Source: a virus (taxonomy: Duplodnaviria > Heunggongvirae > Uroviricota > Caudoviricetes). From it: DNA of 64,000 bases. Position 1 is the stretch's first letter, and the number at the start of each line of letters is the position of its first letter. The notes under the pieces were generated by a model, which saw nothing but the letters and a program-made list of their open reading frames with translations, ran no database searches and had not been told where the DNA came from. The position numbers and the translations under genes are program-made. Shown piece by piece: positions 550 through 56,415 of the stretch. The stretch spans positions 82,564-146,563 of IMG/VR virus record IMGVR_UViG_3300044712_002337. One strand, 5' to 3'.

Positions 550-1119
550 GTGAGCAAAACGAACCAGCAAATCGTAGACGACTGCAACAAGCTGGCCCAG
601 ACGTTTTACGCGATGTGCGGGTACGAGGTGCCGGACGACTACAAGATGTATGAAGCGACGCACCCCCAAGAGACCAGCATGTGGACCATGGCGGTGTACG
701 CCTACGACCACATCGAGGGGACGGACGTGGAGTGCGCCCTGGCGGAGATGGAAGGAGATGAGAGCGATTTGAAAGAAGTGCGAGAACACTTCCAGAAGAA
801 CAAACCCGGCCTGGACGAGGCCCTGAAGGCCGCCGGGCAGAGCGAGCCGAAGTCGCTCGGAAAGGTTTTGGAGGAAGCCACCAAGAAGAAGTTGTTAAAG
901 ACGACATACACCGTCTGGAACCGGCCGAAGCGGACGAGCGACCCCGCCCACCACGAGAAGATGGACGCGTACGAAGACCTGGAGACGGCGAAGGAGTTCG
1001 CGACGGCGAACGTCGAGGACGGGCGGGCTTACGAGTCGTACGTGCTCGGCCCGACCGGGGTGTGCGTGTTCGAGGCGCGGAAGTCGGGCGTCCGCCCCGT
1101 TCCGAAGAGGAAGAAATGA
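550..1119 (+). CDS. hypothetical protein
   Basis: GTG at 550 in frame of ORF 394..1119, preceded by leader TGTGAGTGGAGCGAACGAA resembling conserved GTGAGCGGAGCGAAC; upstream part of long ORF overlaps previous gene. Confidence 0.5.
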   Translation: MSKTNQQIVDDCNKLAQTFYAMCGYEVPDDYKMYEATHPQETSMWTMAVYAYDHIEGTDVECALAEMEGDESDLKEVREHFQKNKPGLDEALKAAGQSEPKSLGKVLEEATKKKLLKTTYTVWNRPKRTSDPAHHEKMDAYEDLETAKEFATANVEDGRAYESYVLGPTGVCVFEARKSGVRPVPKRKK

Positions 1120-1379
1120 TTTTCACCCTGGGCAAACGCTCCATCTACGAGCCGCTCTTCGGCGGGCCCGAGCCCCCCTGTATGGCTAGACATAGCAGCG
1201 TGTGGGAGACCGCGGAGGCCGCCGCCGCCCACATCGCCGGCTTCGACTATGAGCCCGAGTTCGCCGTGTACGGGGTGCTGGCCGACTGGGACGACGACAC
1301 CTACGAGGGGGACTACCCGGACTGCGAGTGGCGGTGCCTCGGGCAGTCGATGCCGCTCGTCAAATTGGACGGGGGGTGA
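1115..1379 (+). CDS. hypothetical protein
   Basis: ATG overlapping upstream TGA (ATGA coupling); acidic protein. Confidence 0.4.
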
Positions 1380-1382
1380 CAC

Positions 1383-1682
1383 GTGCGACTACGAAAAGTG
1401 CGGGCCCACCTCCTCCCCTGCCCCTTCTGCGGGCTGTCCGAGCTCGACGTCGGGGTCCAATCTTGCGATTCGTACGGGGTCCGATGTCCCCAGTGTCGAG
1501 TCGGGATGAGCACCGGCCTGCCGGGGAGGTGGCCCCGGGGCGTGTGGCGGAAGGGGCTGACGGCGAACGCCAACATGAAGCGGCTGGCCGAGTGGTGTCT
1601 GAAACAGGCGGTGCTCCGCTGGAACGCCAGGTCGGCCGCGGCGGACCACGGGGTGAAGTACGAGTGCGTGGGATACCTCTAG
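1383..1682 (+). CDS. small zinc-ribbon protein, Lar-like (CPFCG...CPQC)
   Basis: CPFCG and CPQC cysteine pairs typical of Lar-family restriction-alleviation zinc ribbons; GTG start. Confidence 0.4.
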   Translation: MRLRKVRAHLLPCPFCGLSELDVGVQSCDSYGVRCPQCRVGMSTGLPGRWPRGVWRKGLTANANMKRLAEWCLKQAVLRWNARSAAADHGVKYECVGYL

Positions 1683-1740
1683 TGGGGGCAAGCCCCCACG
1701 CCCCGCGGCCCGAAGGGCCGCATGTTAAAAGGAGAAAACC
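1683..1740. repeat. intergenic punctuation cassette: two hairpins + ATGTTAAAAGGAGAAAACC directly before ATG
   Basis: TGGGGGcaagCCCCCA, GCGGCCCgaaGGGCCGC, core. Confidence 0.6.
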
Positions 1741-2889: not shown

Positions 2890-2939
2890 CCTGAGCACAT
2901 AAATCCAAACAACCTCTTCGAAGTGAGGCGTAGCCGAAC

Positions 2940-4496: not shown

Positions 4497-4537
4497 CTGG
4501 GCTTGTCAACGCGGCTAAAATTCACTATCTTATAAAA

Positions 4538-4948
4538 ATGCAAGACCTCGCCGGCCCGCCCCGCGTCCGCGTGTACCTGGACTCCACCCGGAAAGTCTGG
4601 TCCGTGACCCGCCGGGGGCGGGTGGCGGACAAGCCGCACCGCCTGCTCCTGGGGGACGTGCGGTTCGTGGTGAGCGAGCGGGCCAGGGCCCGCGCCCGGA
4701 AGACCGGGCGGAAGACCCCCCACGCGTACGTCGAGGGCGTGGTGCTCGGGCGGGACTGGTCGGCCCTGCGGCCCCGGGGCGGGCGGCGGTTCGGGTACAA
4801 CCCGTTCGTCCACCGGGGGTTCACCGACGGGGGCGGGCGAGTTCTGGAGGCCGCGAAGGCGGTCTACCTGGAAGTCGGCACGGGCGGGGTGACCTGTGTC
4901 GCGTTCCAGCCTAAAGGCCGGAAGCCGGCCGCCTGGAAGGCGCCCTGA
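4538..4948 (+). CDS. hypothetical protein
   Basis: ATG immediately abutted by CTATCTTATAAAAATG box; in frame of long ORF 3872..4948 whose upstream part is antisense junk. Confidence 0.45.
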   Translation: MQDLAGPPRVRVYLDSTRKVWSVTRRGRVADKPHRLLLGDVRFVVSERARARARKTGRKTPHAYVEGVVLGRDWSALRPRGGRRFGYNPFVHRGFTDGGGRVLEAAKAVYLEVGTGGVTCVAFQPKGRKPAAWKAP

Positions 4949-5967: not shown

Positions 5968-7200
5968 AAGATGTGAAGTCCACATAATTGGGTGTTTGAC
6001 GTGTACTTAACGGTTGATATCAGACTCATCGCAACGTCCGCCCAGGCGGAGTCGCTGGCCCGCACGGCGGTCGCCTTCGCCGCCGCCTGCGACCACGTGA
6101 GCGGGTACGCGTTCGAACACAAGCTATTCGGCCGGTTCGCCCTCCAGAAGGCGGTGTACCGCGACGTCCGGGAGAAGTTCGGCCTGTCCGCCCAGACGGC
6201 CTGCCTGGTCGTCGCCCGGGTGGCCGCCGCGTACAAGCGGGAGCGGGGCGTCCGCCACGAGTTCCGCCGGCCGACCGCCACCTACGACGACCGCGTCCTC
6301 GCCGTCGACCTCCCCGCCCGGACGGTCTCCGTCTGGACGGTGGACGGCCGCCTGAAGGGGGTACCGTTCGTCTGCGGGGCGCGGCAGGCCCGCCAACTGG
6401 AGGGCGAGCGGGGCGAGGCCGACCTGGTGTGCCGGGACGGGCGGTGGTACCTGCTGGTGACGGTGACCGCCCCGGAAAAGCCGCTCCGCCCGGCGACGGA
6501 CTACCTGGGGGTGGACCTCGGGGTGTACACCCTAGCGGCGGACAGCGATGGCGTCCGACACTCGGGCAAAGCGGTCAAGAGCGTCCGCCACCGCCACCGG
6601 CGGCTTCGCCGCAAACTCCAGAAGAAGAACACCAAGTCGGCCCTGCGGCGACTTCGCTTGCTGGCCGGGAAAGAAGGAAGGTTCGCTACCCATGTAAACC
6701 ACGTGTTGTCGAAAAAGTTGGTCTCGGTCGCCGAACGCACCGGCCGCGGGATTGCCCTGGAGGACCTCCGGGGTATTCGCGGGCGGATCAGGGCTAGCAG
6801 GGCGACGCGGGCTCAGCTCCACTCCTGGGCGTTCGCCCAGCTCCGGTCGTTCATCGCCTACAAGGCCGCCCTGGCGGGCGTCCCAGTGGCGGTGGTGGAC
6901 CCGGCGAACACCTCTCGCGCGTGCGCCGCTTGCGGGCACTGCGAGAAGGCCAACCGCCGCGGACGAGAGTTTCTTTGTCGCTCGTGCGGTTTTACCGCCG
7001 ACCCCGACACCAACGCGGCGGAGAACATCCGTCGGGCCGCAGTAAACCGGCCGAACGCCTGGAACGGCTCCGCCGTGGCCGGGTAAAGCTCATGACAAAA
7101 ACCTTGGGCGTTTACGTGGCCCGACTTGTCAACGCAGGGCTTATGAGTGACGGAGTAATAGTCACTCCAAGGCTACCACTTGAGAAGAGGATTAGGGGTC
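5968..7200 (+). mobile_element. IS200/IS605-family (IS1341-like, TnpA-less) element carrying tnpB copy 1; boundaries approximate
   Basis: TnpB ORF with subterminal hairpins (ATGTGaagtcCACAT upstream; GAGTGACggagtaatagTCACTC downstream, candidate omega-RNA region). Confidence 0.5.
5992..7086 (+). CDS. tnpB: TnpB (OrfB) RNA-guided nuclease, IS200/IS605 family
   Basis: RuvC-I GVDLG, RuvC-II ALEDL, C-terminal CxxC..CxxC zinc finger and RuvC-III DPDTNAAENI. Confidence 0.85.
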   Translation: MFDVYLTVDIRLIATSAQAESLARTAVAFAAACDHVSGYAFEHKLFGRFALQKAVYRDVREKFGLSAQTACLVVARVAAAYKRERGVRHEFRRPTATYDDRVLAVDLPARTVSVWTVDGRLKGVPFVCGARQARQLEGERGEADLVCRDGRWYLLVTVTAPEKPLRPATDYLGVDLGVYTLAADSDGVRHSGKAVKSVRHRHRRLRRKLQKKNTKSALRRLRLLAGKEGRFATHVNHVLSKKLVSVAERTGRGIALEDLRGIRGRIRASRATRAQLHSWAFAQLRSFIAYKAALAGVPVAVVDPANTSRACAACGHCEKANRRGREFLCRSCGFTADPDTNAAENIRRAAVNRPNAWNGSAVAG

Positions 7201-9894: not shown

Positions 9895-10130
9895 AAACCG
9901 TTAAATGGCACACGCAGGAGTACCACGTGCTCGGGCACAACTGGTACGCCCGGCACGTCGAGCGGACCGGCACCTGGCGGCTGTACTACGGGACGAACGC
10001 CAAGGGGTCGGACGTGCCCGGGTACCTGAAGGCGTTCCGCGAGGGGGGCGAACTGGTCGCCCTGCCCACCCTGGCCGCCTGCCGCGAGTACGTCCAACTG
10101 CGGGCCCGGCCCGCGAAGGCGGGCCGATGA
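9891..10130 (+). CDS. hypothetical protein, tandem paralog B
   Basis: TTG start overlapping TGA of paralog A; TVKWHTQEYHVLGHNWYAR...RLYYGTNAKGSDVPG. Confidence 0.4.
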   Translation: MKTVKWHTQEYHVLGHNWYARHVERTGTWRLYYGTNAKGSDVPGYLKAFREGGELVALPTLAACREYVQLRARPAKAGR

Positions 10131-10393
10131 CCGACACCCAGACGGAGTACTACCTGTACCTGCTCAAGCACGTCGAGGACCACGGGTACCAGCCGAGCTA
10201 CAAGGAGATGGCCGAGGTGTTCGGGGTCACCCCCAAGTCGGTGAAGGACATCTTCCTCAACCTGGAGGCCCAGGGCGTCCTGGAACTCGGGGACTATCGA
10301 CAGGAGCGGTCGATTCGGCTAAAAGGGGTGAAGTTCTGGGCGTACGACGCCCGCCTGTCCCGCCCCCCGTGCCCGAAGTGCGAGAACGCATGA
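10127..10393 (+). CDS. LexA-like winged-helix DNA-binding protein (no peptidase domain)
   Basis: ATGA overlap; YLYLLKHVEDHGYQPSYKEMAEVFGVTPKSVKDIFLNLEAQGVLEL matches LexA N-terminal wHTH pattern. Confidence 0.45.
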   Translation: MTDTQTEYYLYLLKHVEDHGYQPSYKEMAEVFGVTPKSVKDIFLNLEAQGVLELGDYRQERSIRLKGVKFWAYDARLSRPPCPKCENA

Positions 10394-10854: not shown

Positions 10855-10951
10855 CTATCTTATAAAAATGTGGGGACACCCCACAGCCCCCGCGGGCCGG
10901 TGGCCCGCATGTTAAAAGGGGAAACACACTTCCCGCGAGCGGAGCGAGCCC
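10855..10951. repeat. full-length cassette: CTATCTTATAAAAATG + 2 hairpins + ATGTTAAAAGGGGAAACAC + CGCGAGCGGAGCGAGCCC + ATG
   Basis: hairpins near-identical to copy at 1683. Confidence 0.65.
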
Positions 10952-12591: not shown

Positions 12592-12638
12592 TCCGGGGCT
12601 CCGCCCCCGACCCCGCAACCCGTGAGCGAAGCGAACTC

Positions 12639-13298: not shown

Positions 13299-13321
13299 CC
13301 CCCACATGTTAAAAGGGGAAA
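13281..13321. repeat. cassette: hairpin GTGGGGGcgtagCCCCCAC (contains upstream TAG) + ATGTTAAAAGGGGAAAGTC
   Basis: before HAD-like gene. Confidence 0.55.
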
Positions 13322-13630
13322 GTCATCAAGCGAATCGCGTTCGACATCGACGGGGTGTTGCGGCCCGAGGGCCCGGCCGGCGACCGCTACCTGCAGCGGC
13401 CGGACGTGCGGGTGCGGGAGGCGATGCGGCGGGCCAAGGCGGCCGGTCATTTCGTGATGGCGTTCACGGCCGCCCCCTGGGGGGACTACCGGCTGACGAA
13501 ACTCTGGCTGGACGAGCACGGGTTCCCCGTGGACGTCCTGATTTGCGGAAAACCTAACTACGACTGCTTCTACGACGACCGGACGGTCAACTCGCTCTCC
13601 GCCTTCGAGGAGTTCCTGGATGCCCATTAA
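13322..13630 (+). CDS. HAD-superfamily hydrolase-like protein (start codon unresolved)
   Basis: in-frame VIKRIAFDIDGVL (HAD motif I DxDGV) lies upstream of first canonical start (GTG 13355); frame opens after TAA inside ATGTTAAAAGG. Confidence 0.4.
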   Translation, partial: VIKRIAFDIDGVLRPEGPAGDRYLQRPDVRVREAMRRAKAAGHFVMAFTAAPWGDYRLTKLWLDEHGFPVDVLICGKPNYDCFYDDRTVNSLSAFEEFLDAH

Positions 13631-14375: not shown

Positions 14376-15445
14376 TTCGCCAATATACCCCCTGGGTGGC
14401 GACCAACCAGAAGAAGTATGTCAACGACTGCCTGGACGAGAACTACCTGAGTCACCGCGGGAAGTACGGGAAGCTCTTCGAGGCCGGCCTCGCGGCCGCC
14501 GCCAAGAGGAAGCACGCCGCCCTCACCGGCAGCGGCACGGCCGCCCTGTTCGCCATGTACTACGCCGAAGGGCTGGTGGGGAAACGGGTCCTGGCCCCGA
14601 CGCTCACGTACGCGGCCACGATAAATCAGCTGATTTTAATAGGTGCGACGCCGGTGCTCGTGGACTGCGACGAGCGGCACCAGATGGAGATTAACCAAGT
14701 GCGGGAGGGGCTCGCCCGGGGGTTGGCGGACGCGGTGGTGGTCGCCCCGCTCTACGGCGACGCCCCCAACATGCTCGCGTTCGAACTCGCCTGCCACGAC
14801 TTCGGCGTGCCCCTGCTCGTCGACGGGGCCCAGGCGTTCGGAGCCGACTGGAACGGACGTCCGGTGCTCAGTTATGGCCGCTCGGCCACCCTGTCCTTCT
14901 TTGCCGGGAAAACGCTCGGGACGGGGGAAGGCGGGTGCGTGTTCACTGACGACGAGGAGGTCGACCGCCGCGCCCGCGACGCGGTCAACCACAACACCTA
15001 CACGAATTACCGGCACGGCAGCCCGTACTGCACCAACTCGCGGATGACCAACCTGCAGGCGGCGGTCGGGCTGGCCCAGTTGGAGGACGCCCCCGCCATC
15101 CTGCAGAACAAGCGGCGGGTTCATACCGAGTACGCCCGCCTGCTCCCGGCCGCGGTCCTCCGCCCCCGCACGGGTCTGGCCTGGGTGAACGTCGTCCGGG
15201 TGAAGCCGGGACTCACGTACGCGGAGGTCGAGGCGGTCGCAAGAGCGGCCGGCGTGGAACTCCGCCCGATGTTCGCCCCCCTGCACACCCTGCCCGGGTA
15301 CGCCTCGCGGGTGGACACCCCGTTCCCCCTCCGGGCGAGTGAGGTGGCGGCCGCCACGCACGTCAGCCTGCCGAGCGGGCCGACCCTGACCGCGGAAGAA
15401 ATCGGCCGGGTGGCGGACGCGGTACGGCCGTTCCTGGTTGACTAA
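14372..15445 (+). CDS. DegT/DnrJ/EryC1/StrS-family PLP-dependent sugar aminotransferase
   Basis: SGTAAL and SFFAGKTLGTGEGG (PLP lysine region) motifs; ATGA overlap start. Confidence 0.75.
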   Translation: MIRQYTPWVATNQKKYVNDCLDENYLSHRGKYGKLFEAGLAAAAKRKHAALTGSGTAALFAMYYAEGLVGKRVLAPTLTYAATINQLILIGATPVLVDCDERHQMEINQVREGLARGLADAVVVAPLYGDAPNMLAFELACHDFGVPLLVDGAQAFGADWNGRPVLSYGRSATLSFFAGKTLGTGEGGCVFTDDEEVDRRARDAVNHNTYTNYRHGSPYCTNSRMTNLQAAVGLAQLEDAPAILQNKRRVHTEYARLLPAAVLRPRTGLAWVNVVRVKPGLTYAEVEAVARAAGVELRPMFAPLHTLPGYASRVDTPFPLRASEVAAATHVSLPSGPTLTAEEIGRVADAVRPFLVD

Positions 15446-15494
15446 AACTTGTCTATCTTATAAAATAACCGGACACCCCGCGAGCGGAGCGAAC

Positions 15495-15755: not shown

Positions 15756-15822
15756 GTTTTCCCCTTTTAAAATCCGGGGCTCCCGCCCTCCCCGACACCC
15801 GACCCCGCGAGCGAGCCGAACC
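15756..15822. repeat. cassette (inverted): TAG-GTTTTCCCCTTTTAAAATC + GC-rich region + CCCGCGAGCGAGCCGAACC leader
   Basis: before sigma-like gene. Confidence 0.55.
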
Positions 15823-17198: not shown

Positions 17199-17225
17199 AA
17201 CCTACCCCCGCGAGGGCCCCGAGCC

Positions 17226-17495
17226 GTGTCACCCGACCTGAAGCGCCGCCTGTCCGCCGCCGTCGGCGGCGTCATCGAGGCGAACGAGGCGGCCCGCGCC
17301 GCCCACAACCGGGCGGCCGACGCCCGGGCCTGGCTGGAGCAGACGTTCGGCGACTGGACGGGGAAGGTGGTGCTGGAGCACAACGGGAAGCAGATTCTGG
17401 TCACCCGCACGAGGGACGAGGCCCGCCTCGCCCGCTGGTCTTGGGAGGAGATAGAGTCAACCACCCCACGGCTAAAGCCGGGGGCTTGCGGCTGA
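17226..17495 (+). CDS. hypothetical protein (3' end overlaps tnpB copy 2 terminus)
   Basis: GTG preceded by CCCGCGAGGGCCCCGAGCC leader variant; last ~24 nt overlap convergent tnpB. Confidence 0.35.
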   Translation: MSPDLKRRLSAAVGGVIEANEAARAAHNRAADARAWLEQTFGDWTGKVVLEHNGKQILVTRTRDEARLARWSWEEIESTTPRLKPGACG

Positions 17496-19528: not shown

Positions 19529-19633
19529 TTTGTCCCTTTCAACATGTGGGCCGCAGGCCCACGAGGCCGTGGGGGTGAGCCCCCACCATGTTAAAAGGAA
19601 AAATCCAACTACCCCCTGTGAGCGGAGCGAACA
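19529..19633. repeat. complete palindromic unit: TGA-TTTGTCCCTTTCAACATG + 2 hairpins + CATGTTAAAAGGAAAAATC + TGTGAGCGGAGCGAACA + GTG
   Basis: left and right arms are reverse complements. Confidence 0.65.
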
Positions 19634-21758: not shown

Positions 21759-21759
21759 G

Positions 21760-21811
21760 GGGTTTTGGGGTCAGGTTTTCGGGGTCGGGGGGTTTTGGGG
21801 TCAGAAGTGTA
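21760..21811. repeat. arm-type direct repeats GGTTTTGGGGTCAG (x2) between int and tRNA fragment
   Basis: same 13-14-mer recurs at 22083-22130. Confidence 0.55.
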
Positions 21812-21864
21812 CCGCGGATATGCCTGCGTTTCCAGCCTTTTTTCGGTTTTCCCCTCGCGAAGCG

Positions 21865-22183: not shown

Positions 22184-23072
22184 TCACGGGCGAGCGGAGC
22201 GAGCCCAAGAAAGGAGCCCCTCCGAAACCCAAGACGTCGCCTCGGCGGCGGTCGCGGCGCCGACGTAACGACTGGTGAACGAGTGTTCCCTGGAAGATGA
22301 GTCCGCCAGGCCGGCCCTCAGAACGCACTCGAACACGTCGGCCGGCAGGACGGCCGACTCCGGTACGCCGTCGCTCGGCCGGGGCCGGTCTGCCGAATAG
22401 AAGCAGTAGTACCGCCCGTTCCAGTGCGGGGCCCGGTCGGTCGCCCGCACCGACTCGACCGGGTGGGCCCGCGCGACCCCCGGTCCGAGGCCGGGGGTGA
22501 ACAGGGTGGGCACCCGCCGGGTGCCGGGGCGGTCCATCCGGGACACCTCCGCCGTCTCCCACGTCCCGTACCAGTCGGCGAACCGGCACACCGCCGCGCG
22601 GACGAACCCGCGGCGCCAGAACAGTCCCTCCCCGCTCTCGTCCCGGCCCTGTCCAATTCTCTGCGGGACACCTCTGGTCTCCACCCAGGTGTGGTCCAGC
22701 AGGTGCCGCAGGGCCCGGTCGTCCAGGCCGAACGCACAGTTCGGGTCCGGGCAGTCCCGCCGGGACCAGGCGGAGCACTCCCGGCACGGCGTACACCGGG
22801 CGGCGTGGACTTGGGTTCGGATGAAGTCCGCCCTCGCGGCGTTCGCGTTCGGGGCAACCGCCTTGCCGCGGCAAACCCCGCACTCGTGCCCCCAAACCGG
22901 CTGGGTCACCCCGAGCCGCCGGGACAAGTCACAGACGCCCGTCCCGCCGCACTTCTCGCACCGCGTCGCGGCGGCGTTCTCGTCCAACCAGTCCGCGTAC
23001 ACCAGGCGTTCGAGGTCCGACGCCGGGTTGGCCCGGATGGCGGCGAGCAGGGCTTCTTCCTCGGTCATGCGT
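22184..23072 (-). CDS. TIGR02996-type repeat-companion domain protein (paralog 3), Cys-rich
   Basis: MTEEEALLAAIRANPASDLERLVYADWLDE; ATG preceded by GTGAGCGGAGCGAACGC; longer ORF start rejected. Confidence 0.55.
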
Positions 23073-23175
23073 TCGCTCCGCTCACGTTTCGGGTCTGGGG
23101 CGCAACCCCAGGGGGTGTGGGGTGCAACCCCAGGGGGTGTGGGGCAAAGCCCCACATGTTAAAAGGAGGAAGTCA
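23073..23175. repeat. cassette on minus-gene strand: TGA-CTTCCTCCTTTTAACA + 3 hairpins (22-nt tandem) + GTGAGCGGAGCGAACGC + ATG
   Basis: between TIGR02996 paralogs 4 and 3. Confidence 0.6.
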
Positions 23176-28238: not shown

Positions 28239-28279
28239 AAGCGGTCGCCCCCTTCGGACCCCGCGAGGCGCAGCCGAGC

Positions 28280-30178: not shown

Positions 30179-30925
30179 TCGCACCTCCGGGTGGGCCTCG
30201 TAGAACGCTCGGACGGCGTCCACCACTTGGGCTCCGCCCAACACCCGATTCACCCCGGTTCCACGCATCCCGGGCGCCACGTTGAAGTCGACGGCGTACA
30301 GGCCGGCCCGGCCGGGGGCGAAGTCGACCGCCCAGAGCGGCTTCTTGACGACCGGGTGGAATCCCGCGTTCAGCCGGTAGTCCACCAGGTCGACGTCCCC
30401 TTCCCCGTCGTTGGACATCCAACTCGCTTCGCTCGTGTACAGAAGGTAGAAGGTGTGGGGGCCGACCTGGAGGAGCCGCAGGCTCTCGGCCTTCTCGACG
30501 GGGACACCCCGGTACCCCTTCGGGTGGACGTACGCCGAGCAGTACAGTTGCTTCTCCCGCCAGTACCGGTCGCCGCCGGGCATCCCCATGTGCGGGTTCG
30601 AGGTGATTTGGCACTTGCGGAGCAGCCGCTTCCCTTCCGCGCAGTGGGCCGTCTCGTCGTCGTAGACGACCACCAGGTTGATGGGCGCCCAGGACGGGCC
30701 GCCGACTGAGTCCTGGTACTCCTCCGGCCAGGACCGGTTCATCACGTCGCCGACTAAGCCGTGCGGCGGAGTCTGGAACCCGGCCTCCTCCAGCAGGCGG
30801 AACTGGTCCCGCTTGGGCGGCCCGGTGTGGCCGCCGGTCCGGTCGAACACGACGGCGTCGTCCGACGGCGGGTCGAAGTAGTTGTCGTAGTACTCCCGCC
30901 ACGTGGAGCGGAGCGAAACCTTCAT
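30176..30925 (-). CDS. hypothetical protein
   Basis: internal ATG preceded by GCGAGCGGAGCGAGCA leader, cassette and hairpin. Confidence 0.5.
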   Translation of the reverse strand: MKVSLRSTWREYYDNYFDPPSDDAVVFDRTGGHTGPPKRDQFRLLEEAGFQTPPHGLVGDVMNRSWPEEYQDSVGGPSWAPINLVVVYDDETAHCAEGKRLLRKCQITSNPHMGMPGGDRYWREKQLYCSAYVHPKGYRGVPVEKAESLRLLQVGPHTFYLLYTSEASWMSNDGEGDVDLVDYRLNAGFHPVVKKPLWAVDFAPGRAGLYAVDFNVAPGMRGTGVNRVLGGAQVVDAVRAFYEAHPEVR

Positions 30926-30995
30926 TGCTCGCTCCGCTCGCAAGAAGAGTACGGTTTTCACCTTTTCAAAATTCGGCCCGCAGGGCCAAGAGGCG
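30926..30995. repeat. cassette (minus strand): hairpin GGCCCtgcGGGCC + GAATTTTGAAAAGGTGAAAACC + GCGAGCGGAGCGAGCA + ATG Confidence 0.55.
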
Positions 30996-31490: not shown

Positions 31491-31534
31491 CGCTCGGTCT
31501 CCTCGCGGAAAGATTCAGGTGGCGGCTACGCCGC

Positions 31535-39602: not shown

Positions 39603-41682
39603 CTTCGTCCTCCTGGGTCTCTTCGAGCCCTTTCATCCAGCGGTAGTCGGGCACCCGGTGCGTCCGGATGGTCTCCAGACAGCCGACCAGCTTGTCCTCG
39701 ACCGCCACCCCGAGAAAGTCTAATTTAGGCACACCTAATTGTTCTAACTCAGGATAATCCATTCCGGCGATGAGTTCGCCCGCCTTGGCGTCCCACACCA
39801 GCGGGCACATCTCGGCCAGCGGGCGGGCGGAAATGACGATGCCGCTGGCGTGGGTGCCCCGCCCCCGCTTGCACCCCTCCAGCCGGGAGGCCTGGGCGAA
39901 GAGCGGGCCGAGCGGCCCCTCGAACGCCCCGTCCGGGGTGAGCTTGACGAACTCCTGGAAGTCCTCCGGGTGGTGCGTGAGCACGTACTTGATGATGCTC
40001 GCCTCGCCCGTCTCCTCCCGCATCTCCTGCAGCTTGTCGGCAATCTGGTCCTTGCCGGGGAGCCGCTTGGTGATTTCCTTCCGCTCCTTGTAGTCCCCCC
40101 ACCCGTGGGCCGAGAACACGGCGGTCAGGGCGCTCGCCCCGTGCAGGCTCTGGAAGGTGGCGATGTGGGCCACCCGGTCGCTCCCGTACTTCTTGCGGAC
40201 GTACCGGATGACCGCCTCCCGCCGGCCGACCGGGAAGTCCATGTCGATGTCCGGCAGCATGGCCGGCTTCCCGGGCTGGTTACGGGAGTCGTCGTAGAAC
40301 CGCTCGAACGACAGGTCGGCCTTGATGGGGTCGGTGTCGTGGATGTCGAGCAAGTACCCAACAATCGTACCGGCGGCCGAGCCACGCCCTTCGACGGCCC
40401 TCGCCCCGATGGAGATGGCGTACCGGCAGACGTCGGCGGCGATGAGGAAGTAGCCGTGCAGGTTCGCCTTGTCGTACACGGCGTACTCGTGTTCGAGCTG
40501 GGCGCGGTACCTGTCCTGCTCGTGAGCGGGGACCACCCCCGCCACCTTCCGCTCCCACCCCTCCTTGCACAGCGCCCGCAGGTGCTCGCCCTCGGCCTCG
40601 CCGCCCGGCGTGGGGAAGCCCGGCAGTTCGGGCGGGCCGGACAGGCTGTAGCTCTCGCACATGTCCGCGAAGTGGAGGGAGGCCTCCAGCTCGCCCGGCT
40701 CGTGGCGGGCGGCCATGTGTTCGACGGACGGGATGTGGAACTGGCTCGACCGGAAGAAGCCGCCGAGCGTCACGTCTTCGCCGTTGTCGGCCTGCTGTTG
40801 GACCTTGGCCAAAGTCGTCTTGAACGCGTTGCAGAGGAGCACCCGCTGGTCCGGCGCGTCCTCCGGGCGGGCCATGTGGGCGTCCGGGGTGGCCACCACC
40901 CGCGTCCCCGTCTCCTTCCCCGCCCACCGCATGATGTTGGCCAGCACCTGGGCGGCGGGCGAGTTCAGCCTCCCCTCGTCGTCCACGTCGTACAGTTGGA
41001 CTTCGAGCCCGACGTTCTCCTTGCCGAACAGGTCGTGGTACCGGCCAATCTCGCGGACCAAATCGACCTTCAAGGCCGACCAGTCCTTCACGTAAGACTT
41101 GGCCCGCTCGTACGTGGCCGCCTTGTAAGCCGCCTTCGGGTCGGCGAAGACGAAGTCGGCCAGGGTGCTGCCGATGTGCCCGGTGAGGGCAATCAGGTTG
41201 CCGCCCGCGAAGCCGCCCAGTCTTTCTAAATCAAGCCTTGGCTTGTAGTAGAAGTGGTCCGGGTGGTTCGAGGCCGAGGTGGCCTTCAGGAGAGACTGCC
41301 ACCCGGCGCGGTTCTTGGCGAGGATGACCAGGTGGGACAGGCCGCGGTCGTCCTTGTCCTTGACGGTCGCGTCCTTGCGACAGACGTAAAACTCATTTCC
41401 CAGGATGAGCTTCTTCTTCGACGGCTCGTACGCCGGGCACGCCTCCCCGGCAATCAGACACCGCCCCTTCCCCCCGTCCGCGTGCGAGCTCTTCGGCCGC
41501 CCGCACACGCCGCACGCGTCCGCCATCGCCCGCTGGTACGCCGGGGCCCCGCTGACGCTGCCGTGCTCCGTAATCGCCGCGCCGGGCAGGCCGCACTTCA
41601 CCACCCGGGCGGCCATGTCCTGGGGTGATGTAAGTCCGTCTAATAAACTATGTTGACCGTGACAATGAAGAGGATAATACAT
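39595..41682 (-). CDS. dnaE: DNA polymerase III alpha (DnaE) N-terminal half (PHP + palm)
   Basis: PHP LHCHGQHSLLDG...ITEHG, GRGSAAGTIVGYLLDI, catalytic PDIDMDF, HASGIVIS, KLDFLGV; ends with acidic tail and stop before fingers domain. Confidence 0.85.
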   Translation of the reverse strand: MYYPLHCHGQHSLLDGLTSPQDMAARVVKCGLPGAAITEHGSVSGAPAYQRAMADACGVCGRPKSSHADGGKGRCLIAGEACPAYEPSKKKLILGNEFYVCRKDATVKDKDDRGLSHLVILAKNRAGWQSLLKATSASNHPDHFYYKPRLDLERLGGFAGGNLIALTGHIGSTLADFVFADPKAAYKAATYERAKSYVKDWSALKVDLVREIGRYHDLFGKENVGLEVQLYDVDDEGRLNSPAAQVLANIMRWAGKETGTRVVATPDAHMARPEDAPDQRVLLCNAFKTTLAKVQQQADNGEDVTLGGFFRSSQFHIPSVEHMAARHEPGELEASLHFADMCESYSLSGPPELPGFPTPGGEAEGEHLRALCKEGWERKVAGVVPAHEQDRYRAQLEHEYAVYDKANLHGYFLIAADVCRYAISIGARAVEGRGSAAGTIVGYLLDIHDTDPIKADLSFERFYDDSRNQPGKPAMLPDIDMDFPVGRREAVIRYVRKKYGSDRVAHIATFQSLHGASALTAVFSAHGWGDYKERKEITKRLPGKDQIADKLQEMREETGEASIIKYVLTHHPEDFQEFVKLTPDGAFEGPLGPLFAQASRLEGCKRGRGTHASGIVISARPLAEMCPLVWDAKAGELIAGMDYPELEQLGVPKLDFLGVAVEDKLVGCLETIRTHRVPDYRWMKGLEETQEDEDD

Positions 41683-42009: not shown

Positions 42010-42020
42010 GCTCGCTCCGC

Positions 42021-42542
42021 TCACGAGGGGAGAACGGGAGCGTCGACCTCCCGCGTGTCGCCGGCGCCCGAGATGGTGTTCGTCTTCTTCCGCGCGGTCA
42101 GCTTGTCCAGGTTCCCCTGGGCGACGTCGGCGGCGTTCAGCCCCATGTCCCCCATCACCTTGTTGGCGTACCACATTTGGCCGTCCCCGATTTCTTTGGA
42201 GATGGGGGTGATGTCCATCCCGAAGAGGAGGCCGCGGAACTTGCTGCACCACGCCTTGTCCGCCTCGCCGAACCCGCCCTGGTCGCGGACCCGCTTCTTC
42301 TCGGCCTCGGCCAGTTTCCCGACGCGGGTGAACCCCTCCAAGGCGCCCTTGAACATGATGGCGGTGAGCGACCCCCCGTCCGGGATTTGGGCCGCGACGG
42401 CGAGCAGCTTTTCGCACAGTTCGCCCGTCTCGCCCATGAGGCCGAGCATGGGGTACACCACCGCCGCCTCGGTCGGGTACATGGCGAAGGCCGCCGCCTG
42501 GGTCTGGTAGTCGGTGAAGGTCAGGTCGTTCGCTTCGTTCAC
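42021..42542 (-). CDS. MazG-family nucleoside triphosphate pyrophosphohydrolase
   Basis: LGLMGETGELCEKL EExxE-type motif. Confidence 0.6.
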   Translation of the reverse strand: MNEANDLTFTDYQTQAAAFAMYPTEAAVVYPMLGLMGETGELCEKLLAVAAQIPDGGSLTAIMFKGALEGFTRVGKLAEAEKKRVRDQGGFGEADKAWCSKFRGLLFGMDITPISKEIGDGQMWYANKVMGDMGLNAADVAQGNLDKLTARKKTNTISGAGDTREVDAPVLPS

Positions 42543-42615: not shown

Positions 42616-42924
42616 CTACCGCGATTTCGTTCCGACGGTCAGGGCCCACCCCAGCGGGCGGAGGACCCAGAACCAGACGGCGACGCCGGCCAGCCACACG
42701 GGCCACGTGACCACCACCATCCCGCCGAAGAACATCACCTCGTCGTCGTCCGGTCCGCCGCCGTAACACCCGCCGCTGAGCGGCCCCCACCGCCGGCTCA
42801 CGAAGAGCCGGCCCGTCAGGACGCCGCCCAGCAGGTAGGCGAAAACGCCCAGGGCCCACCACACCGCCGGCGGGACGCCGGTCCAGAAGTCGGGGATTTC
42901 AATGACCACGTGCGCTGCGCTCAC
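42616..42924 (-). CDS. hypothetical membrane protein
   Basis: 3 hydrophobic segments, Trp-rich. Confidence 0.45.
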   Translation of the reverse strand: MSAAHVVIEIPDFWTGVPPAVWWALGVFAYLLGGVLTGRLFVSRRWGPLSGGCYGGGPDDDEVMFFGGMVVVTWPVWLAGVAVWFWVLRPLGWALTVGTKSR

Positions 42925-45100: not shown

Positions 45101-45162
45101 GCTCGGCTTCGCCTCACTCCCGGGGTTGTGGGGCGGAGCCCCACATTTTAAAAGGGTGAAAA

Positions 45163-48530: not shown

Positions 48531-48563
48531 CGCTCACCTCGTTCGCAGAAAGAGTATGGACTT

Positions 48564-53381: not shown

Positions 53382-53558
53382 GTGCAGCGTCTGGGACTGT
53401 GCCCAGTCAGCGTGGGCGGCCGTCCCGTTCGGGTGGGCCACGTCGTGCCGGACGGCGGTGCAACTGCGGGCGGCCTCGCTGGCCGAATGTCGGAACGTGG
53501 ACACAGGACGACTCCGGCGGCGGGGCGGGCGAGCGGGGGACACCGCTCATACCCCGGT

Positions 53559-53603
53559 GGGGCCCGCCGAAGTCAATTTTTTAAAAGGGTGAATTAACCT
53601 TCA
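53559..53603. repeat. cassette: CCCCaccGGGG + CAATTTTTTAAAAGGGTGAATTAACC abutting RNR stop Confidence 0.5.
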
Positions 53604-55865
53604 CACCTCGCACGCCCCGCCGGCGCACGCCACCTCCCCGCCCAGGTTCACCCCGCTCCGCTCCTCCACCATCCCGGCGTAGTCCACCTCCACGTACTCG
53701 GCCTTCAGCCGCTGGTGCAGGTAGTAGCAGTACACGTCTTTCAGACAGTAGGAGGTGAGTTTGACGTCCGAAGCGAAGAGGGCGGCGGCCAGGTCCTTCA
53801 CCTGGTCCAGCCACCACGCCGCCTGCTCCGTCCGCCCCCGCAGGCCGAGCAGCATGTCGCACCACTGCCACAGGGTGACGCTGTCGCCCGCCGGCAGGGC
53901 GTTGAGGAGGGCCGACGCGCGGGCGACCGCCGGGTGCCCGTACCGGGCGAGCATTTCCTCGGCCGTGGGCACGGCGGTGAACGGCGCCTGCACGTAGTCC
54001 TTGTCCCCGCTCTGGGAGATGAGGGACACGCCGGCGTAGTCGGCCTGGTGGGTGAAAATCTGCTCGGCCACCTCCGCCCACTCGTGCTCCCGCACCTTCA
54101 CCGTGTTCGACGTGTTGTGGCACAGGCCGGGCACCACGCACCGGGCCGGGACCGTCCCCGGCCGCACCCAGTTGTTCTGCACCGTCCGCACGTGCCCGAG
54201 GAACTCGACCGCCGTCATGTCGTCCTCCAGCAGCCCCTCGTACTCGACGCAGAAGCGGATGACGTCGTCCGTCCCCTCCCGCGACCAGGCCGACGGCTCG
54301 CACGCCGCCTCGTTCCGGCTCTTGAAGTGCCGGTACGGGGCCTCCTGCCGGTTCGCCTGGACGGTGCGGAACCCGCGGCGGATTTTGCCCGGGTGGCACC
54401 CCGAGTACGAGCCGAGGAGCGACGCCAGGTTGCCGTCCGGCTTCACGCACGTGGTGCGGGCGGCCGGGTTGATGCCGATGCGGGCGGCCACCCGCTCGTT
54501 CCGGGCGACCACCCGCGCCGCGCCCTCCCGCAGGGCGGCCGGGTCCAGGAATATCTCCGGGTGGTGCATCATCCCGCACACGGACACCCCGATGAGCGAT
54601 TCGGCGCGGAAGATGTCCTCGCTCACCGGGCCGACGAACGGCATCTTCGTCATGCCGGCCTGCCAGGTGCCGATTTCCGCCGCCGCCTCCGCCCGCTCGA
54701 AGAAGTCGTCTTTGTCCCGGACGGTCTTACCGTTGACAGAGGACAGGTTGCACCCCTGGAAACCGGACAGCCGGACCTTGCCCGGGGTGTGCGCCCGGTC
54801 CACCGGGCCGTCGTACGCGGCGAAGTACCGGCCCAGTCGGGCCGAGTCGGCCTCGTCCACGAGTAGGTACGGGTACATCCCAATCTCGACACACGGGTTA
54901 TAGCAAAAATCCAGGTCGTCCAACCAGATGAACCCCGGTTCGCCGAACTGCCGGGTGCACTCGAACAGGGCGAAGAACTCCTCCCAGGTGACCTTCCCGC
55001 GGGGCAGCGCGGCCGACATGTTCGCCCGCCCCCGCTGCGGGTTGGCCTCGAACCAGTTGCCCGTCTTGTACGCCCGCATCCGCGGGGAGTCGCGGTCGAA
55101 CACCCCCAGGTTGGCGCTCCGCCGCACCCCGCCGGACACCACCGCGTCCGACCCGTTCAGGTGGTAGTCGGACGCCTGCTCGTCGGTCAGCCGGGTGTGC
55201 CCCTCCCCAATCGCCCGGGCGAGCAGCCGCTTGTTCCGGGCGAGCGCCTGGGCGAGGGGTTTGGGGCCGGGGGCGGTGCCCACCCCGTAGGACAGGGGCG
55301 AGCCGGCCGGGCGGACGTCGTCGAACTCGAACTCCACCTCGCAATCGAAATACTCCTCGTACCCGGGCACCGGCCGGTCGAAGTGGCTGGACAGCTGGAC
55401 GTGGGCGCAGGACGCCCACCCCTCGATGGAGTCGGGCACGCGGTACGGCTTCTTCGGCAGCTTCCGCCCGGCCAGCCGGGCCTTGCTGAACCCGGGCAGG
55501 TGGCGGATGTGCCGCTCCTGCACGCTGTACCCGACCCCGGACCCGGCCAGGAGGAGGTACATGGCCTGGCCGAAGAAGCTGAGGCGGTCGACGTTGGAGC
55601 TGCAGCAGTTGTAGGTGCGAGCCTCGTGTTTGAGCAGCGGCGGGCCGCCGAACTGCAGGCTCCGCATGCTCGGCAGAACGTCCATCGGCCGGACGTAGCG
55701 GTCGGCCAGGTGGCGAATCCGGCCGGCCTCGCCCGGGTACTTGGTGGCGAACCCGTCCGCCCACCGCTCGACCGTCTCCGGCCACACCTCGCGGCGGTTG
55801 AGCTCCTGGATGTGGCGGGCGTATTTGGAGACGGACGTGTACTTCTGGAGTTCGGCGACGGACAT
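53601..55865 (-). CDS. ribonucleotide reductase catalytic protein (class II-like)
   Basis: CYNPCVEIGM (NPC(G/V)EI) catalytic motif, C-terminal Cys pair CAGGACEV; internal ATG start. Confidence 0.8.
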   Translation of the reverse strand: MSVAELQKYTSVSKYARHIQELNRREVWPETVERWADGFATKYPGEAGRIRHLADRYVRPMDVLPSMRSLQFGGPPLLKHEARTYNCCSSNVDRLSFFGQAMYLLLAGSGVGYSVQERHIRHLPGFSKARLAGRKLPKKPYRVPDSIEGWASCAHVQLSSHFDRPVPGYEEYFDCEVEFEFDDVRPAGSPLSYGVGTAPGPKPLAQALARNKRLLARAIGEGHTRLTDEQASDYHLNGSDAVVSGGVRRSANLGVFDRDSPRMRAYKTGNWFEANPQRGRANMSAALPRGKVTWEEFFALFECTRQFGEPGFIWLDDLDFCYNPCVEIGMYPYLLVDEADSARLGRYFAAYDGPVDRAHTPGKVRLSGFQGCNLSSVNGKTVRDKDDFFERAEAAAEIGTWQAGMTKMPFVGPVSEDIFRAESLIGVSVCGMMHHPEIFLDPAALREGAARVVARNERVAARIGINPAARTTCVKPDGNLASLLGSYSGCHPGKIRRGFRTVQANRQEAPYRHFKSRNEAACEPSAWSREGTDDVIRFCVEYEGLLEDDMTAVEFLGHVRTVQNNWVRPGTVPARCVVPGLCHNTSNTVKVREHEWAEVAEQIFTHQADYAGVSLISQSGDKDYVQAPFTAVPTAEEMLARYGHPAVARASALLNALPAGDSVTLWQWCDMLLGLRGRTEQAAWWLDQVKDLAAALFASDVKLTSYCLKDVYCYYLHQRLKAEYVEVDYAGMVEERSGVNLGGEVACAGGACEV

Positions 55866-56016
55866 CACTGTTCCTTGGCTCGGGGCGGCGGACCGGAATC
55901 GGCGAGGTGCTAGTACCCCCGGCGGAGACGGGTATTGTACAGGTTTTTGTAAAATAGAAAAGGCCACCCGGAGGCGGCCCCGTCCCCTTTTCCTCGCCCC
56001 GCCCGTAGGCCGGGCG

Positions 56017-56415
56017 TCACCGCCGCCCGCGGAACTCCCGCCACAGCTTGAAGAGCTCGACGGCCAGCCCGGCGATGGTGACCAGGTCCGTCAGGCCGAA
56101 CTTGGCGGCTTCCGCCCGCAGCTCGTCGGCCGCCGCCGTCAACTCCCGCACCGCCAGGGCGACCGACGGGTCCGCCAGGGCGGCCGCGACGTCGGCCCGG
56201 AGGGCCGCCATAACGGGAGCGGCGGCAACGCCTTCGGGAACGGCCCGCGGGGCCGGCGAGAGCCGGTCGGCGACCGGGGCGACGGCGACGAGCACCCGCC
56301 CGCCGGACCGGCACGCGTCGCCGTACCGCTGGCCCCGCACGGCCTCGGTCAGCTCCTTCATCTCGGCCGTCACGTTCCGCACGGCGGCCAGGTAGTCTTG
56401 GATGGTGTCGAACAT
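56017..56415 (-). CDS. hypothetical protein
   Basis: internal ATG preceded by TTTGCGAGCGTCGCGAACAA leader, hairpins and cassette. Confidence 0.4.
   Translation of the reverse strand: MFDTIQDYLAAVRNVTAEMKELTEAVRGQRYGDACRSGGRVLVAVAPVADRLSPAPRAVPEGVAAAPVMAALRADVAAALADPSVALAVRELTAAADELRAEAAKFGLTDLVTIAGLAVELFKLWREFRGRR

Follow-up and report, generated by a model that had tools for sequence, protein, structure and literature searches.

Genomic setting of a repeated start-adjacent box

We analyzed a 64-kb stretch of DNA (the window; 69% G+C) from a tailed phage with a genome of ~176 kb (IMG/VR record IMGVR_UViG_3300044712_002337, positions 82,564 to 146,563), in which an earlier note, made from the letters alone, had described a GC-rich box of 15-18 nt directly ahead of the start codons of otherwise unrelated genes. 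We found the box to be a strand-specific, 15-nt element within a longer conserved block, with covariation consistent with a small hairpin, and we tentatively favor its reading as an RNA operator that would control some 20 accessory genes jointly at translation initiation. The window encodes a split DnaE, DnaB, a Toprim primase, a RecA-like protein, a class II ribonucleotide reductase-like protein, ThyX, and a MazG-like pyrophosphatase, together with three TnpB proteins, a Dam methylase, sugar-modifying enzymes, and many small open reading frames (ORFs) of unknown function. The DnaE fragment is identical on a 176,391-bp contig, homologues at 45-58% identity mark a family of 165-177-kb contigs, and no close relative was found among the INPHARED phages. 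The analysis covered 72 kb of the genome (the window and adjoining sequence), and gene starts were those of the public assembly's own, independent gene calls (120 genes in the 72 kb).

The phage looks temperate from its sequence, as a tyrosine integrase gene (20541-21758, minus strand) adjoins a 425-nt non-coding gap (21759-22183) that is likely attP. The 5' half of a tRNA-Met(CAT) gene lies within this gap (minus strand, ~21846-21912; not called by ARAGORN), as do iteron-like repeats of GGGGTTTTGGGGTCA (21760-21810 and 22078-22135), one of which is inverted. The tRNA fragment is matched exactly in 24 genomes, mostly labeled as Gemmataceae or relatives (Gemmata, Limnoglobus including L. roseus PX52, Fimbriiglobus, and Isosphaera), and two phage proteins carry the Gemmata-typical TIGR02996 domain, which together indicate that the host is a Gemmata-like planctomycete.

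The box is enriched and abuts called start codons

The sequence GAGCGGAGCGAAC, with up to two mismatches, matched 20 times, compared to 4.16±2.06 matches expected from dinucleotide shuffles (none of 100 shuffles reached 20). A position-weight-matrix scan set 13 strong copies in the window (at least 17.6 bits) apart from a chance-level tail, and a 14th strong copy lies on the same Logan contig, 649 nt upstream of the window. For 11 of these 14 copies, a called start (7 ATG, 4 GTG) follows the end of the box by 0-3 nt, always on the same strand, an outcome with a chance of ~1e-25 in a simple binomial (~480 eligible of ~144,000 strand-positions, ~0.3%). Eight variant copies likewise end 0-3 nt ahead of called same-strand starts. 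Both the number of matches and the position of the strong copies thus confirm that the box is a real element enriched at starts. A relaxed pattern (GYGA, 5-9 nt, SGARC) occurred in 57 places, 17 of them ending 0-3 nt before a called start.

Two of the three remaining strong copies open with a GTG that is itself the called or likely start (38 and 42542), such that the box would form codons 1-5 and the GTG would be part of it. The usual ribosome footprint extends from about -20 to +15, and hence these copies, which begin at the start codon, still lie inside it. The third is an orphan at 22190-22204 on the plus strand.

Some 20 accessory genes of unknown function, most of them small, carry the element; every copy stands ahead of an accessory or replication-region gene, although the 72 kb contain no virion genes. 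Except for one paralogous pair (19634/23068, both with a TIGR02996 domain), the downstream proteins are unrelated, so paralogy does not explain the repeat, and the earlier note was right that the box precedes non-paralogous genes. The eight examples listed in that note were all present at their positions, the one given at 23072 being a motif at 23071-23085 on the minus strand ahead of an ATG at 23068. Among its weaker variants, those at 17226 (GCGAGGGCCCCGAGC-c-GTG) and 28280 (GCGAGGCGCAGCCGAGC-ATG) held up, whereas the one at 27828 is doubtful, as the motif-like stretch there comes only after the called GTG. The note had missed the copies before 42009(-), 42909(-), 42542(-), 38/53(+), 2940(+), 15823(+), 31490(-), 45100(-), and 48530(-), two antisense copies (22190-22204 and 30906-30918, both plus strand), and the two features described next, a conserved block from -8 to +13 and a 15-nt hairpin supported by covariation.

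Conserved unit and predicted hairpin

Alignment of the strong copies showed that conservation is longer than first reported, the unit consisting of a pyrimidine-rich tract followed by G-Y-GAGCGNAGCGA-R-C. The tract is free of G, with a C at -8 in 11 of 13 copies; next come a G at -2, which is invariant, and a Y at -1, leading into G-A-G-C-G-N-A-G-C-G-A-R-C, in which position 6 is free. No conserved element at a fixed distance further upstream was found in this alignment.

The unit can be folded into a 15-nt mini-hairpin, 5'-GY-GA-GC-[GNA]-GC-GA-RC-3', with two outer pairs (an invariant G:C and a Y:R), a tandem G·A/A·G step, an inner GC stem of 2-3 bp, and a GNA triloop, whose middle nucleotide is position 6, explaining why this position varies. 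When given an alignment of nineteen 15-nt copies and no structure, RNAalifold returned ((..((...))..)), with compensatory changes at three of the four Watson-Crick pairs. These include double changes between C:G and U:A at the outer pair and between G:C and A:U as well as C:G and G:C at the inner pairs. The outer Y/R pair is C:G in 9 copies, T:A in 8, T·G in 2, and C·A in 3, while the inner stem flips from C:G to G:C in three copies, changes once from G:C to A:T, and shows two U·G wobbles. Variants with an altered middle carry GGGGGCC, GGGCCCC, GGAGACC, or ACGAGGT, and three 17-nt variants (GTGAGGCGTAGCCGAAC, GCGAGGCGCAGCCGAGC, and GTGAGGCGAAGCCGAGC) have a paired insertion, GGC[GNA]GCC, that adds one G:C pair.

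Upon quantifying this agreement, we found 93.4% of cells to be paired, compared to 82.6±2.4% in shuffles (0 of 500 as high) and at most 46% in slid registers, and a covariation score of 0.405 versus 0.196 in shuffles (again 0 of 500). With the frame GYGA-N7-GARC alone as a criterion, the 16 start-adjacent matches, one of them outside the window (window-equivalent 67758-67772), make 31 of 32 inner pairs, whereas 31 matches elsewhere make 29 of 62. The GA is kept in both arms on the same strand, each time in a 5'-Y-GA-R-3' context, which is the signature of a single-strand fold and not of a duplex palindrome.

Four other descriptions of the box were examined and rejected. A direct repeat, GCGAGC-N3-GCGAGC, is contradicted by eight GTGAGC…GCGAAC copies that are paired and yet not repeated, and a coding element (GTG-SGAN...) by the T-variants, whose GTG is in the reading frame in 5 of 10 cases, and by the C-variants, which cannot start. 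Sequestration of the Shine-Dalgarno (SD) sequence by pairing of the pyrimidine tract with GGAG showed no covariation between -8..-5 and 5..8 upon manual comparison, and the minimum-free-energy (MFE) folds vary by copy. Finally, a known RNA family is not represented, with 0 Rfam matches in the window.

Relation to the Shine-Dalgarno sequence

The earlier note had stated that the box replaces a canonical purine-rich SD. This was not supported, because in 8 of the 11 start-adjacent strong copies the box brings its own GGAG, located in the loop and 3' stem and at normal SD spacing, 5-8 nt ahead of the start codon. With a generic bacterial anti-SD, which may not be that of the host's own 16S rRNA, copies with a GGA loop have a predicted pairing energy of -5.8 kcal/mol, compared to a genome median of -6.15 over the 22 nt upstream of starts; three copies, with GAA, GCA, and GTC loops, lack the GGAG and reach only -2.0 to -2.8 kcal/mol, with all other positions kept. 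The invariant positions G-2, G1, A2, G5, G8-G10, and C13 have no partner in the anti-SD, and phage genes in general carry ordinary SDs. Hence, the SD is part of the element in most copies but neither defines nor explains it.

Specificity to the phage

A covariance model (CM) of the element recovered 20 copies of at least 21 bits in the 72 kb of phage, including one outside the training set, while its best match elsewhere scored 19.2 bits in ~330 kb (five related phage loci and 24 Gemmataceae loci). The Gemmataceae part of this set, a small sample of 160 kb from 24 genomes, all near one tRNA gene, gave 18.6 bits at best and contained no copy with one mismatch or fewer; matches with two mismatches occurred at chance level (5.2 per 64 kb), none of them beside a start. 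A host-wide translation signal was rejected on the basis of the element's absence from this sample. With ~20 copies in 72 kb and none comparable in the ~330 kb from relatives and Gemmataceae, the element is specific to this phage, in line with what the earlier note had supposed.

The box is also not a widespread phage motif: exact GTGAGCGGAGCGAAC gave more than 118 single matches in IMG/VR, at every GC content and about as expected by chance, with an ORF start after only 9 of 122. A search of viral and metagenome contigs for close relatives by the pattern of AT-rich box (see below) plus motif yielded only unrelated low-GC sequences.

Some sequences with a similar design were seen along the way. 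In the relative L128 (52% DnaE identity), CTGAGCGTAGCGAAG-cagcgaac-ATG at 18469-18495 follows the same hairpin design, with the outermost pair turned round to C:G and GTA as the loop, but stands 8 nt from the start; the DnaB gene of L128 is preceded by another weak copy, GAGTGGAGCGACC-GTG. Several unrelated low-GC viral contigs in IMG/VR (L029, L051, L063, L074, L087, and others; sample 3300045988, ~31% GC) contain a repeat family, ...ggtgcGTGAGCGGAGCGAACctaagccgagc..., near contig ends, and L115 has T7-like promoters (ccactatagg) followed by GTGAGCGGAGCGAAC-tt-ATG. The low-GC repeats and L115 look like separate elements with the same mini-hairpin core.

Intergenic context and catalog of copies

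Copies in the window and two variants outside it are collected in Table 1. In most cases, the box gene is the first to follow either a promoter or a GC-rich intergenic hairpin. Seven copies follow a GC hairpin and an AT-rich box, AT(G/T)TTAAAAGGnGAAA (ATGTTAAAAGGnGAAA), at a variable distance of 11-18 nt, and several follow the hairpin and box in inverted orientation; the copies before 550 and 31490 have GGCGGCGWAGCCGCC-ACCTNAANCTTTCY-motif in common, representing a cassette subfamily. A two-box promoter was rejected, as the AT-rich box stands at variable distance and in 7 copies only, with no fixed-distance element upstream. The promoter or box cassettes also occur without the leader, joined straight to a start codon (4538, 43315, 32781, and 60650), indicating that the pyrimidine tract and hairpin act as an optional leader module of ~25 nt.

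Three individual positions are informative. The copy at 15480-15494 begins 13 nt past a near-consensus sigma-70 promoter (TTGACT-17-TAAAAT, 15438-15466), which places it inside a 5' untranslated region (5'UTR) of ~22 nt, at about +9 to +21 of the transcript. Three copies lie at operon junctions, including those at 42010-42024 and at window-equivalent -223..-209, and as the former overlaps the upstream stop codon, its junction lies within the operon and leaves no space for a promoter. The copy at 23071-23085 serves a minus-strand gene in the plus-strand arm, showing that orientation tracks the gene and not the genome arm.

Table 1. Copies and variants of the start-adjacent box, in window coordinates (offset, nt between box end and start codon)
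Copy	Position	Strand	Start codon or location	Remarks	CM score (bits)
Variant	window-equivalent -223..-209		inside end of upstream ORF
GTGAGTGAAGCGAAC copy	38..52	+	at/inside 5' end of ORF 8/38..523	GGAGG 7 nt ahead of GTG 38; motif possibly codons 1-5	21.8
GTGAGTGGAGCGAAC hairpin copy	532..546	+	GTG 550, offset 3	independent gene call	29.1
17-nt variant GTGA-GGC[GTA]GCC-GAAC	2923..2939	+	GTG 2940, offset 0	extra G:C pair
GCGAGCGGAGCGAGC hairpin copy	10935..10949	+	ATG 10952, offset 2	GC hairpin and ATGTTAAAAGGGGAAAC box ahead	30.2
GTGAGCGAAGCGAAC hairpin copy	12622..12636	+	ATG 12639, offset 2	GAA loop, no GGAG
GCGAGCGGAGCGAAC hairpin copy	15480..15494	+	ATG 15495, offset 0
Variant GCGAGCGAGCCGAAC	15807..15821	+	GTG 15823	one inner pair broken
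Variant GCGA-GG[GCC]CC-GAGC	17210..17224	+	GTG 17226	inner pair C:G to G:C	24.7
GTGAGCGGAGCGAAC hairpin copy	19618..19632	+	GTG 19634, offset 1	TIGR02996-domain gene, exact product on record	33.1
GCGAGCGGAGCGAGC orphan copy	22190..22204	+	no start after		22.1
GTGAGCGGAGCGAAC hairpin copy	23071..23085	-	ATG 23068, offset 2
17-nt variant GCGA-GGC[GCA]GCC-GAGC	28263..28279	+	ATG 28280
Antisense copy	30906..30918	+	codons 3-7 of gene 30176-30925
GCGAGCGGAGCGAGC hairpin copy	30927..30941	-	ATG 30925, offset 1		31.4
Variant GCGA-GG[AGA]CC-GAGC	31492..31506	-	GTG 31490		27
GTGAGCGGAGCGAGC hairpin copy	42010..42024	-	ATG 42009, offset 0	overlaps TGA stop of upstream MazG-like gene
GTGAACGAAGCGAAC copy	42528..42542	-	own GTG 42542 = called start, or CTG 42524	codons 1-5 if GTG; GGAG 6 nt ahead of GTG
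GTGAGCGCAGCGCAC hairpin copy	42910..42924	-	GTG 42909, offset 0	GCA loop; hairpin and box ahead; MFE fold draws hairpin
17-nt variant GTGA-GGC[GAA]GCC-GAGC	45101..45117	-	ATG 45100
Variant GCGA-AC[GAG]GT-GAGC	48532..48546	-	GTG 48530	G:C to A:T compensatory	27.4
GCGAGCGTCGCGAAC hairpin copy	56418..56432	-	ATG 56415, offset 2	GTC loop; outer C·A; three extra flanking T:A pairs
Variant GCGA-AG[GAA]CT-GAGC	window-equivalent 67758-67772 (outside window)		before 64-aa gene	both inner pairs altered, still complementary; recovered by CM though outside training set	24.8

The earlier note had proposed to look for a small RNA with complementarity to the box. No such RNA was visible in the 72 kb, where the sole antisense copies lie inside two box-carrying mRNAs. 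The copy at 30906-30918 and the 5'UTR copy of the same gene bracket its AUG, with a predicted stem of 11-13 bp that holds the AUG in its loop (-25.6 kcal/mol for the region). The copy at 22190-22204 falls in the last codons of gene 22184-23068(-), 880 nt from the 5'UTR copy of that gene. Two antisense copies with at most one mismatch compare to ~0.1 expected (scaled from shuffles); they could be modulators of their own two genes, or relics.

A second and commoner intergenic repeat consists of a GC-rich hairpin, variable in sequence with pairing kept, followed by AT(G/T)TTAAAAGGnGAAA(n)TCA. It occupies 32 places in the window (for example 1725+, 10912+, 13309+, 19542-/19591+, 30163+, 38606+, 45148+, 48055+, 52392+, and 60663-), in both orientations, and its GAAA end always abuts an ORF boundary. 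In forward orientation, a start codon follows 2-6 nt later and the AAGGnG of the box is the SD, while in inverted orientation the repeat abuts the stop of the preceding gene, the TCA/TTA/CTA being a stop read on the opposite strand. The repeat is rare in the Gemmataceae DNA sampled, which has 3 matches to the box in 160 kb. A simple scan did not show it to be a canonical terminator, and it is a candidate promoter, terminator, or REP/PATE-like element.

Promoter-like sites are enriched in the window (14 versus ~2.4 expected). Two of them have a leaderless-type layout, at 4503-4540(+) (TTGTCA-17-TATCTT, 6 nt to ATG 4538) and 43352-43313(-) (TTGACG-17-TATCTT, 8 nt to ATG 43315), and their CTATCTTATAAAA cassette recurs at 15450-15466, there followed by the pyrimidine tract and hairpin leader. 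Just past the integrase block, at 24038-25298(+), four strong sigma-70-type promoters (TTGACG/TTGACA-17/18-TATTAT/TATCAT/TAAATT) mark what is likely the immediate-early region.

A proposed shared translational operator and its alternatives

From its sequence and position, the box appears best explained as a translation-initiation or regulatory binding site, as had been proposed in the earlier note. Among the specific forms that such a site could take, we favor, with belief and doubt in about equal measure, an RNA operator hairpin for a trans-acting factor that would control the ~20 accessory genes jointly at translation initiation. The factor would recognize the folded hairpin carrying the SD-like GGAG in its loop and 3' stem and, when bound, would cover the ribosome-binding site, such that the whole gene set would be switched together at initiation; when the factor is absent, the hairpin would be too weak to stop a ribosome, and the GGAG would work as an ordinary SD. 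The strand rule, the 0-3-nt distance, the promoterless junction copy, the copies at start codons, and the conserved weak fold all fit an action on mRNA at initiation. We infer RNA, rather than DNA, to be the active form, a trans factor to exist, and its effect to have the direction described. The factor is probably encoded by the phage, because the element is absent from the sampled host-lineage DNA.

Such an operator would resemble the MS2-type and RegA systems, where a phage protein represses initiation at a small RNA element overlapping the SD or start. The coat-protein hairpin at the replicase start of MS2, R17, and PP7 is a weak hairpin present in a single copy and recognized by its shape and a few bases, and the T4 RegA sites, through which many unrelated early mRNAs are controlled, are loosely conserved, AU-rich, and unstructured. 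The ~20 hairpin copies found here are unlike both, as the MS2-type operator is single-copy and the RegA sites have no structure. No homologue of an MS2-type coat protein or of RegA was seen in the window.

Several observations weigh against a shared RNA operator. Nearest-neighbor energies of the hairpin as RNA range from -0.2 to -4.1 kcal/mol and are no better than those of shuffled sequence, and since the copies share ancestry, the shuffle controls overstate significance. The association of Y(-1) with R(12) also occurs among control matches in coding regions, where it follows from codon phase, the positions being 12 nt apart; the evidence from the inner stem and the insertion is cleaner in this respect. 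A GCGNAGC core with tandem GA in a 5'-Y-GA-R-3' context forms an unusually stable hairpin as DNA and a much weaker one as RNA (PMC13037366), which points towards a role as single-stranded DNA. No RNA-binding regulator was recognized among the window proteins, and as to RNA-binding families, only an ASCH-domain protein (32452-32781), of unclear relevance, was found there. Furthermore, related phages (50-66% protein identity; loci around DnaE or homologues of the 30925 gene) hold 0-2 weak copies, such that the element is of recent origin and may have arisen as a by-product when cassettes spread.

One alternative is a ribosome-binding module that acts in cis only, as the phage's preferred leader, with the SD in a small loop, a possible S1-binding CU tract, and no trans factor. 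Such a leader would spread by duplication and recombination with intergenic cassettes composed of a GC hairpin, an AT-rich box or promoter, and the leader, and we regard it as unlikely, albeit with more than a token chance. The GGAG at SD spacing, with average anti-SD pairing in 8 of 11 copies, would be accounted for, as would the cassette subfamilies, the fusion of the same cassettes to starts lacking the leader, and the relatives that lack the element. However, three strong copies and several variants have no usable SD and still keep the flanks and the pairing, and the invariant positions have no anti-SD partner. Likewise, the compensatory changes and the paired insertion point to selection for a fold whose own stability is too low to have an effect, and the sequence between AT-rich box and motif varies in length and content, indicating that the copies are not recent duplicates.

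We consider it quite improbable that the active form is a mini-hairpin of single-stranded DNA, in which the purine-rich strand would fold in the opened duplex and be read by a polymerase-associated protein, on the model of N4 early promoters, ops/RfaH, or the primase ssi signals. The promoter hairpin of the N4 virion RNA polymerase (vRNAP) has exactly the inner heptamer GCG(G/A)AGC as its core, and the exceptional stability of GNA loops with a closing C:G pair holds for DNA but not for RNA (PMC13037366, PMC4496689). The likeness to N4 covers an identical core (GCGGAGC/GCGAAGC), a GNA triloop that contains a sheared G·A and has C:G as its closing pair, and a phage regulatory context, and the inner 7 nt fit the N4-type heptamer in 13 of the 14 strong copies; both arms moreover keep the GA in 5'-Y-GA-R-3', and the motif lies on the coding, that is, non-template, strand. 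N4 has three promoters with 5-7 uninterrupted pairs, placed on the template strand, with transcription starting 11 nt from the loop center (PMC13037366, PMC4496689), whereas the ~20 copies here have a stem of 2+2 or 2+3 bp split by the tandem G·A. As they lie on the sense strand, an N4-like enzyme would transcribe away from the gene; the opposite strand would have T·C/C·T in its arms. The start offset, variable between 0 and 3 nt, cannot be reconciled with a leaderless start at a fixed position.

RfaH is recruited by the ops element, GGCGGTAGCGTG, a hairpin of the non-template strand, and then brings ribosomes to leaders that lack an SD (PMC5995543). The ops element is of the related GCGNNAGC type and, like the box, a sense-strand, orientation-specific, GC-rich mini-hairpin (GCGGTAGC) in operon leaders, linked to ribosome recruitment. 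By contrast, ops is 12 nt long, with one pair inside the transcription bubble, and stands far upstream of the first gene, while the covarying outer pair of the box spans 15 nt, more than the 10-11-nt bubble (PMC5995543). Among the ~100 window proteins, no T7- or N4-like RNA polymerase and no NusG/RfaH paralogue (no NGN/KOW match) was found, and folding with DNA parameters gives ~0 kcal/mol, though such parameters are known to miss this motif.

A slim chance goes to the box being the tag of an undescribed expression device, either a mini-hairpin that a phage factor associated with polymerase or ribosome would read as single-stranded nucleic acid, coupling accessory-gene transcription to ribosome loading at a start codon 0-3 nt away, or a cleavage tag that would give leaderless messages from polycistronic RNA. 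The former would move ops/RfaH-like or N4-like logic to the start codon, and either might work together with the phage tRNA-Met and the apparent non-AUG starts described below. Also improbable is an RNA processing site, at which an endoribonuclease would cut at the 3' base of the hairpin and release leaderless or near-leaderless mRNAs from polycistronic transcripts. A distance of 0-3 nt is what leaderless translation needs, leaderless-type arrangements exist elsewhere in the phage (4538 and 43315), one copy sits at an intra-operon junction (42010), and the phage tRNA-Met has an initiator-like anticodon stem. Yet the copies at 38 and 42542 open with the called start, which a 3' cut would remove, a GGAG at SD spacing would be pointless if cut away, and no nuclease candidate was identified.

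The remaining alternative is a duplex-DNA operator similar to the stoperators of Cluster A mycobacteriophages, which are ~30 asymmetric 13-bp repressor sites in short intergenic spaces, oriented with transcription, present also at the early promoter, not fixed relative to starts, and devoid of an internal fold. We find such an asymmetric site, bound by a prophage repressor (candidates being the LexA-like product of 10127-10393 and the product of 23159-23893) that would silence lytic or accessory genes, very unlikely: the temperate look of the phage, with an integrase beside an attP-like gap that holds a Gemmataceae tRNA-Met fragment, the ~20 asymmetric sites of 13-15 bp in short intergenic spaces co-oriented with transcription, and the inverted pair around the start of gene 30176-30925 would suit it, but an elongation block does not require a fixed distance of 0-3 nt to the start, no copy occurs at the strong promoters at 24038-25298, where the primary operators of a repressor would be expected, or elsewhere in 23.1-28.2 kb, and the relation between the arms (GTGAGC…GCGAAC) is that of a single-strand fold containing G·A steps, not of a duplex palindrome or direct repeat.

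Comparison with the SAS of mycobacteriophages

The closest parallel in kind is the start-associated sequence (SAS) of Cluster K mycobacteriophages (Pope et al. 2011), an asymmetric 13-bp repeat with 11-19 copies per genome, which lies in one orientation 3-7 nt upstream of the starts of unrelated non-structural genes, is absent from the host genome, and has an occasional orphan copy in the opposite orientation (PMC3203893). Although the SAS includes the SD core AGGAG, pairing with 16S rRNA is not possible for the positions conserved best, and its authors, too, concluded that an SD does not account for the element. About half of its copies are preceded by a second conserved element, the inverted repeat ESAS, for which hairpin formation was judged unlikely (PMC3203893, where the stoperators are also mentioned). 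A survey of the SAS covers 188 genomes (PMC12699233), and its mechanism was still without explanation as of 2025. The element described here is alike in size, copy number, strand rule, start proximity, SD core, temperate phage, orphan copies, and absence from the host (here the 160-kb Gemmataceae sample). It is also conserved beyond what 16S pairing explains (here in the three copies at -2.0 to -2.8 kcal/mol), has a counterpart to ESAS in the GC hairpin and AT-rich box, and shares the plan of complementary ends (GGG…CCC in the SAS) around an SD-containing middle.

The differences are equally clear. The SAS consensus is GGGATAGGAGCCC, compared to GYGAGCGNAGCGARC here, and the two show no resemblance beyond GGAG, differing at more than the two positions that SAS membership allows. 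The phage has a genome of ~176 kb with a split DnaE, its host belongs to the Planctomycetota instead of the Actinomycetota, and the element lies nearer to the start (0-3 nt). While the SAS is conserved cluster-wide, the present element is missing from relatives at 50-66% protein identity, and the fold with tandem G·A and GNA triloop is backed by compensatory changes here, none being claimed for the SAS. Judged by sequence, phage, and host phylum, the element thus resembles the SAS in kind and is not a member of the SAS family. What is new relative to the SAS is the fold supported by compensatory changes; on present evidence, the element is not a categorically new system.

Other features of the window

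The phage encodes a tRNA-Met(CAT) of its own at 34487-34556(-), with its own promoter (TTGACT-16-TAATAT, 34603-34576, minus strand) and with three anticodon-stem G:C pairs and a CUCAUAA loop, as in initiator tRNAs. A link to initiation through this tRNA was rejected, as its C1:G72 is paired, such that it is not a classical bacterial initiator. Possible non-canonical starts were seen at 13313-13630(+), 53(+), the 38209 region(-), and 42524(-). In ORF 13313-13630, a HAD-type N-terminal motif, IAFDIDGVL, stands upstream of the first ATG/GTG/TTG, and the sole plausible start is ATC 13325, placed after the AT-rich box where other copies have ATG; an ATC or CTG after the motif or box also occurs at 53, ~38209, and 42524.

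Two small proteins are candidate regulators of the repeated intergenic elements: a 178-aa protein with sigma-70 region 4 only, a possible phage sigma or anti-sigma-like factor (58761-59297, minus strand), and an 88-aa LexA-type winged-helix protein (10127-10393, plus strand). DnaE is split into two genes, 34692-37190(-) and 39595-41682(-), ~2.4 kb apart, with an exonuclease and UDG-less small ORFs in between; its C-terminal part holds an intein with an HNH endonuclease, and the split is common to the whole family of 165-177-kb contigs. The TnpB genes (OrfB_IS605/Cas12f-like TNB) lie at 5992-7086(+), 17472-18590(-), and 26429-27511(-), and no TnpA was seen in the window. The cumulative GC skew peaks at ~29-30 kb, where genes turn from mostly plus to mostly minus, and may mark a replication origin or terminus there.

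Implications

Since 2011, the SAS has been listed for hundreds of mycobacteriophages with no mechanism assigned to it, and the element described here provides an independent case, in an unrelated phage and with a host of another phylum. This suggests that start-adjacent mini-hairpins carrying an SD are a recurrent phage strategy for accessory-gene sets. Because the object is sharply defined, at 15 nt, it makes the models of an RNA operator and of a single-stranded-DNA hairpin, and with them the question of the SAS, more testable. Furthermore, it adds regulatory annotation to a barely studied group, the large temperate phages of Gemmataceae.

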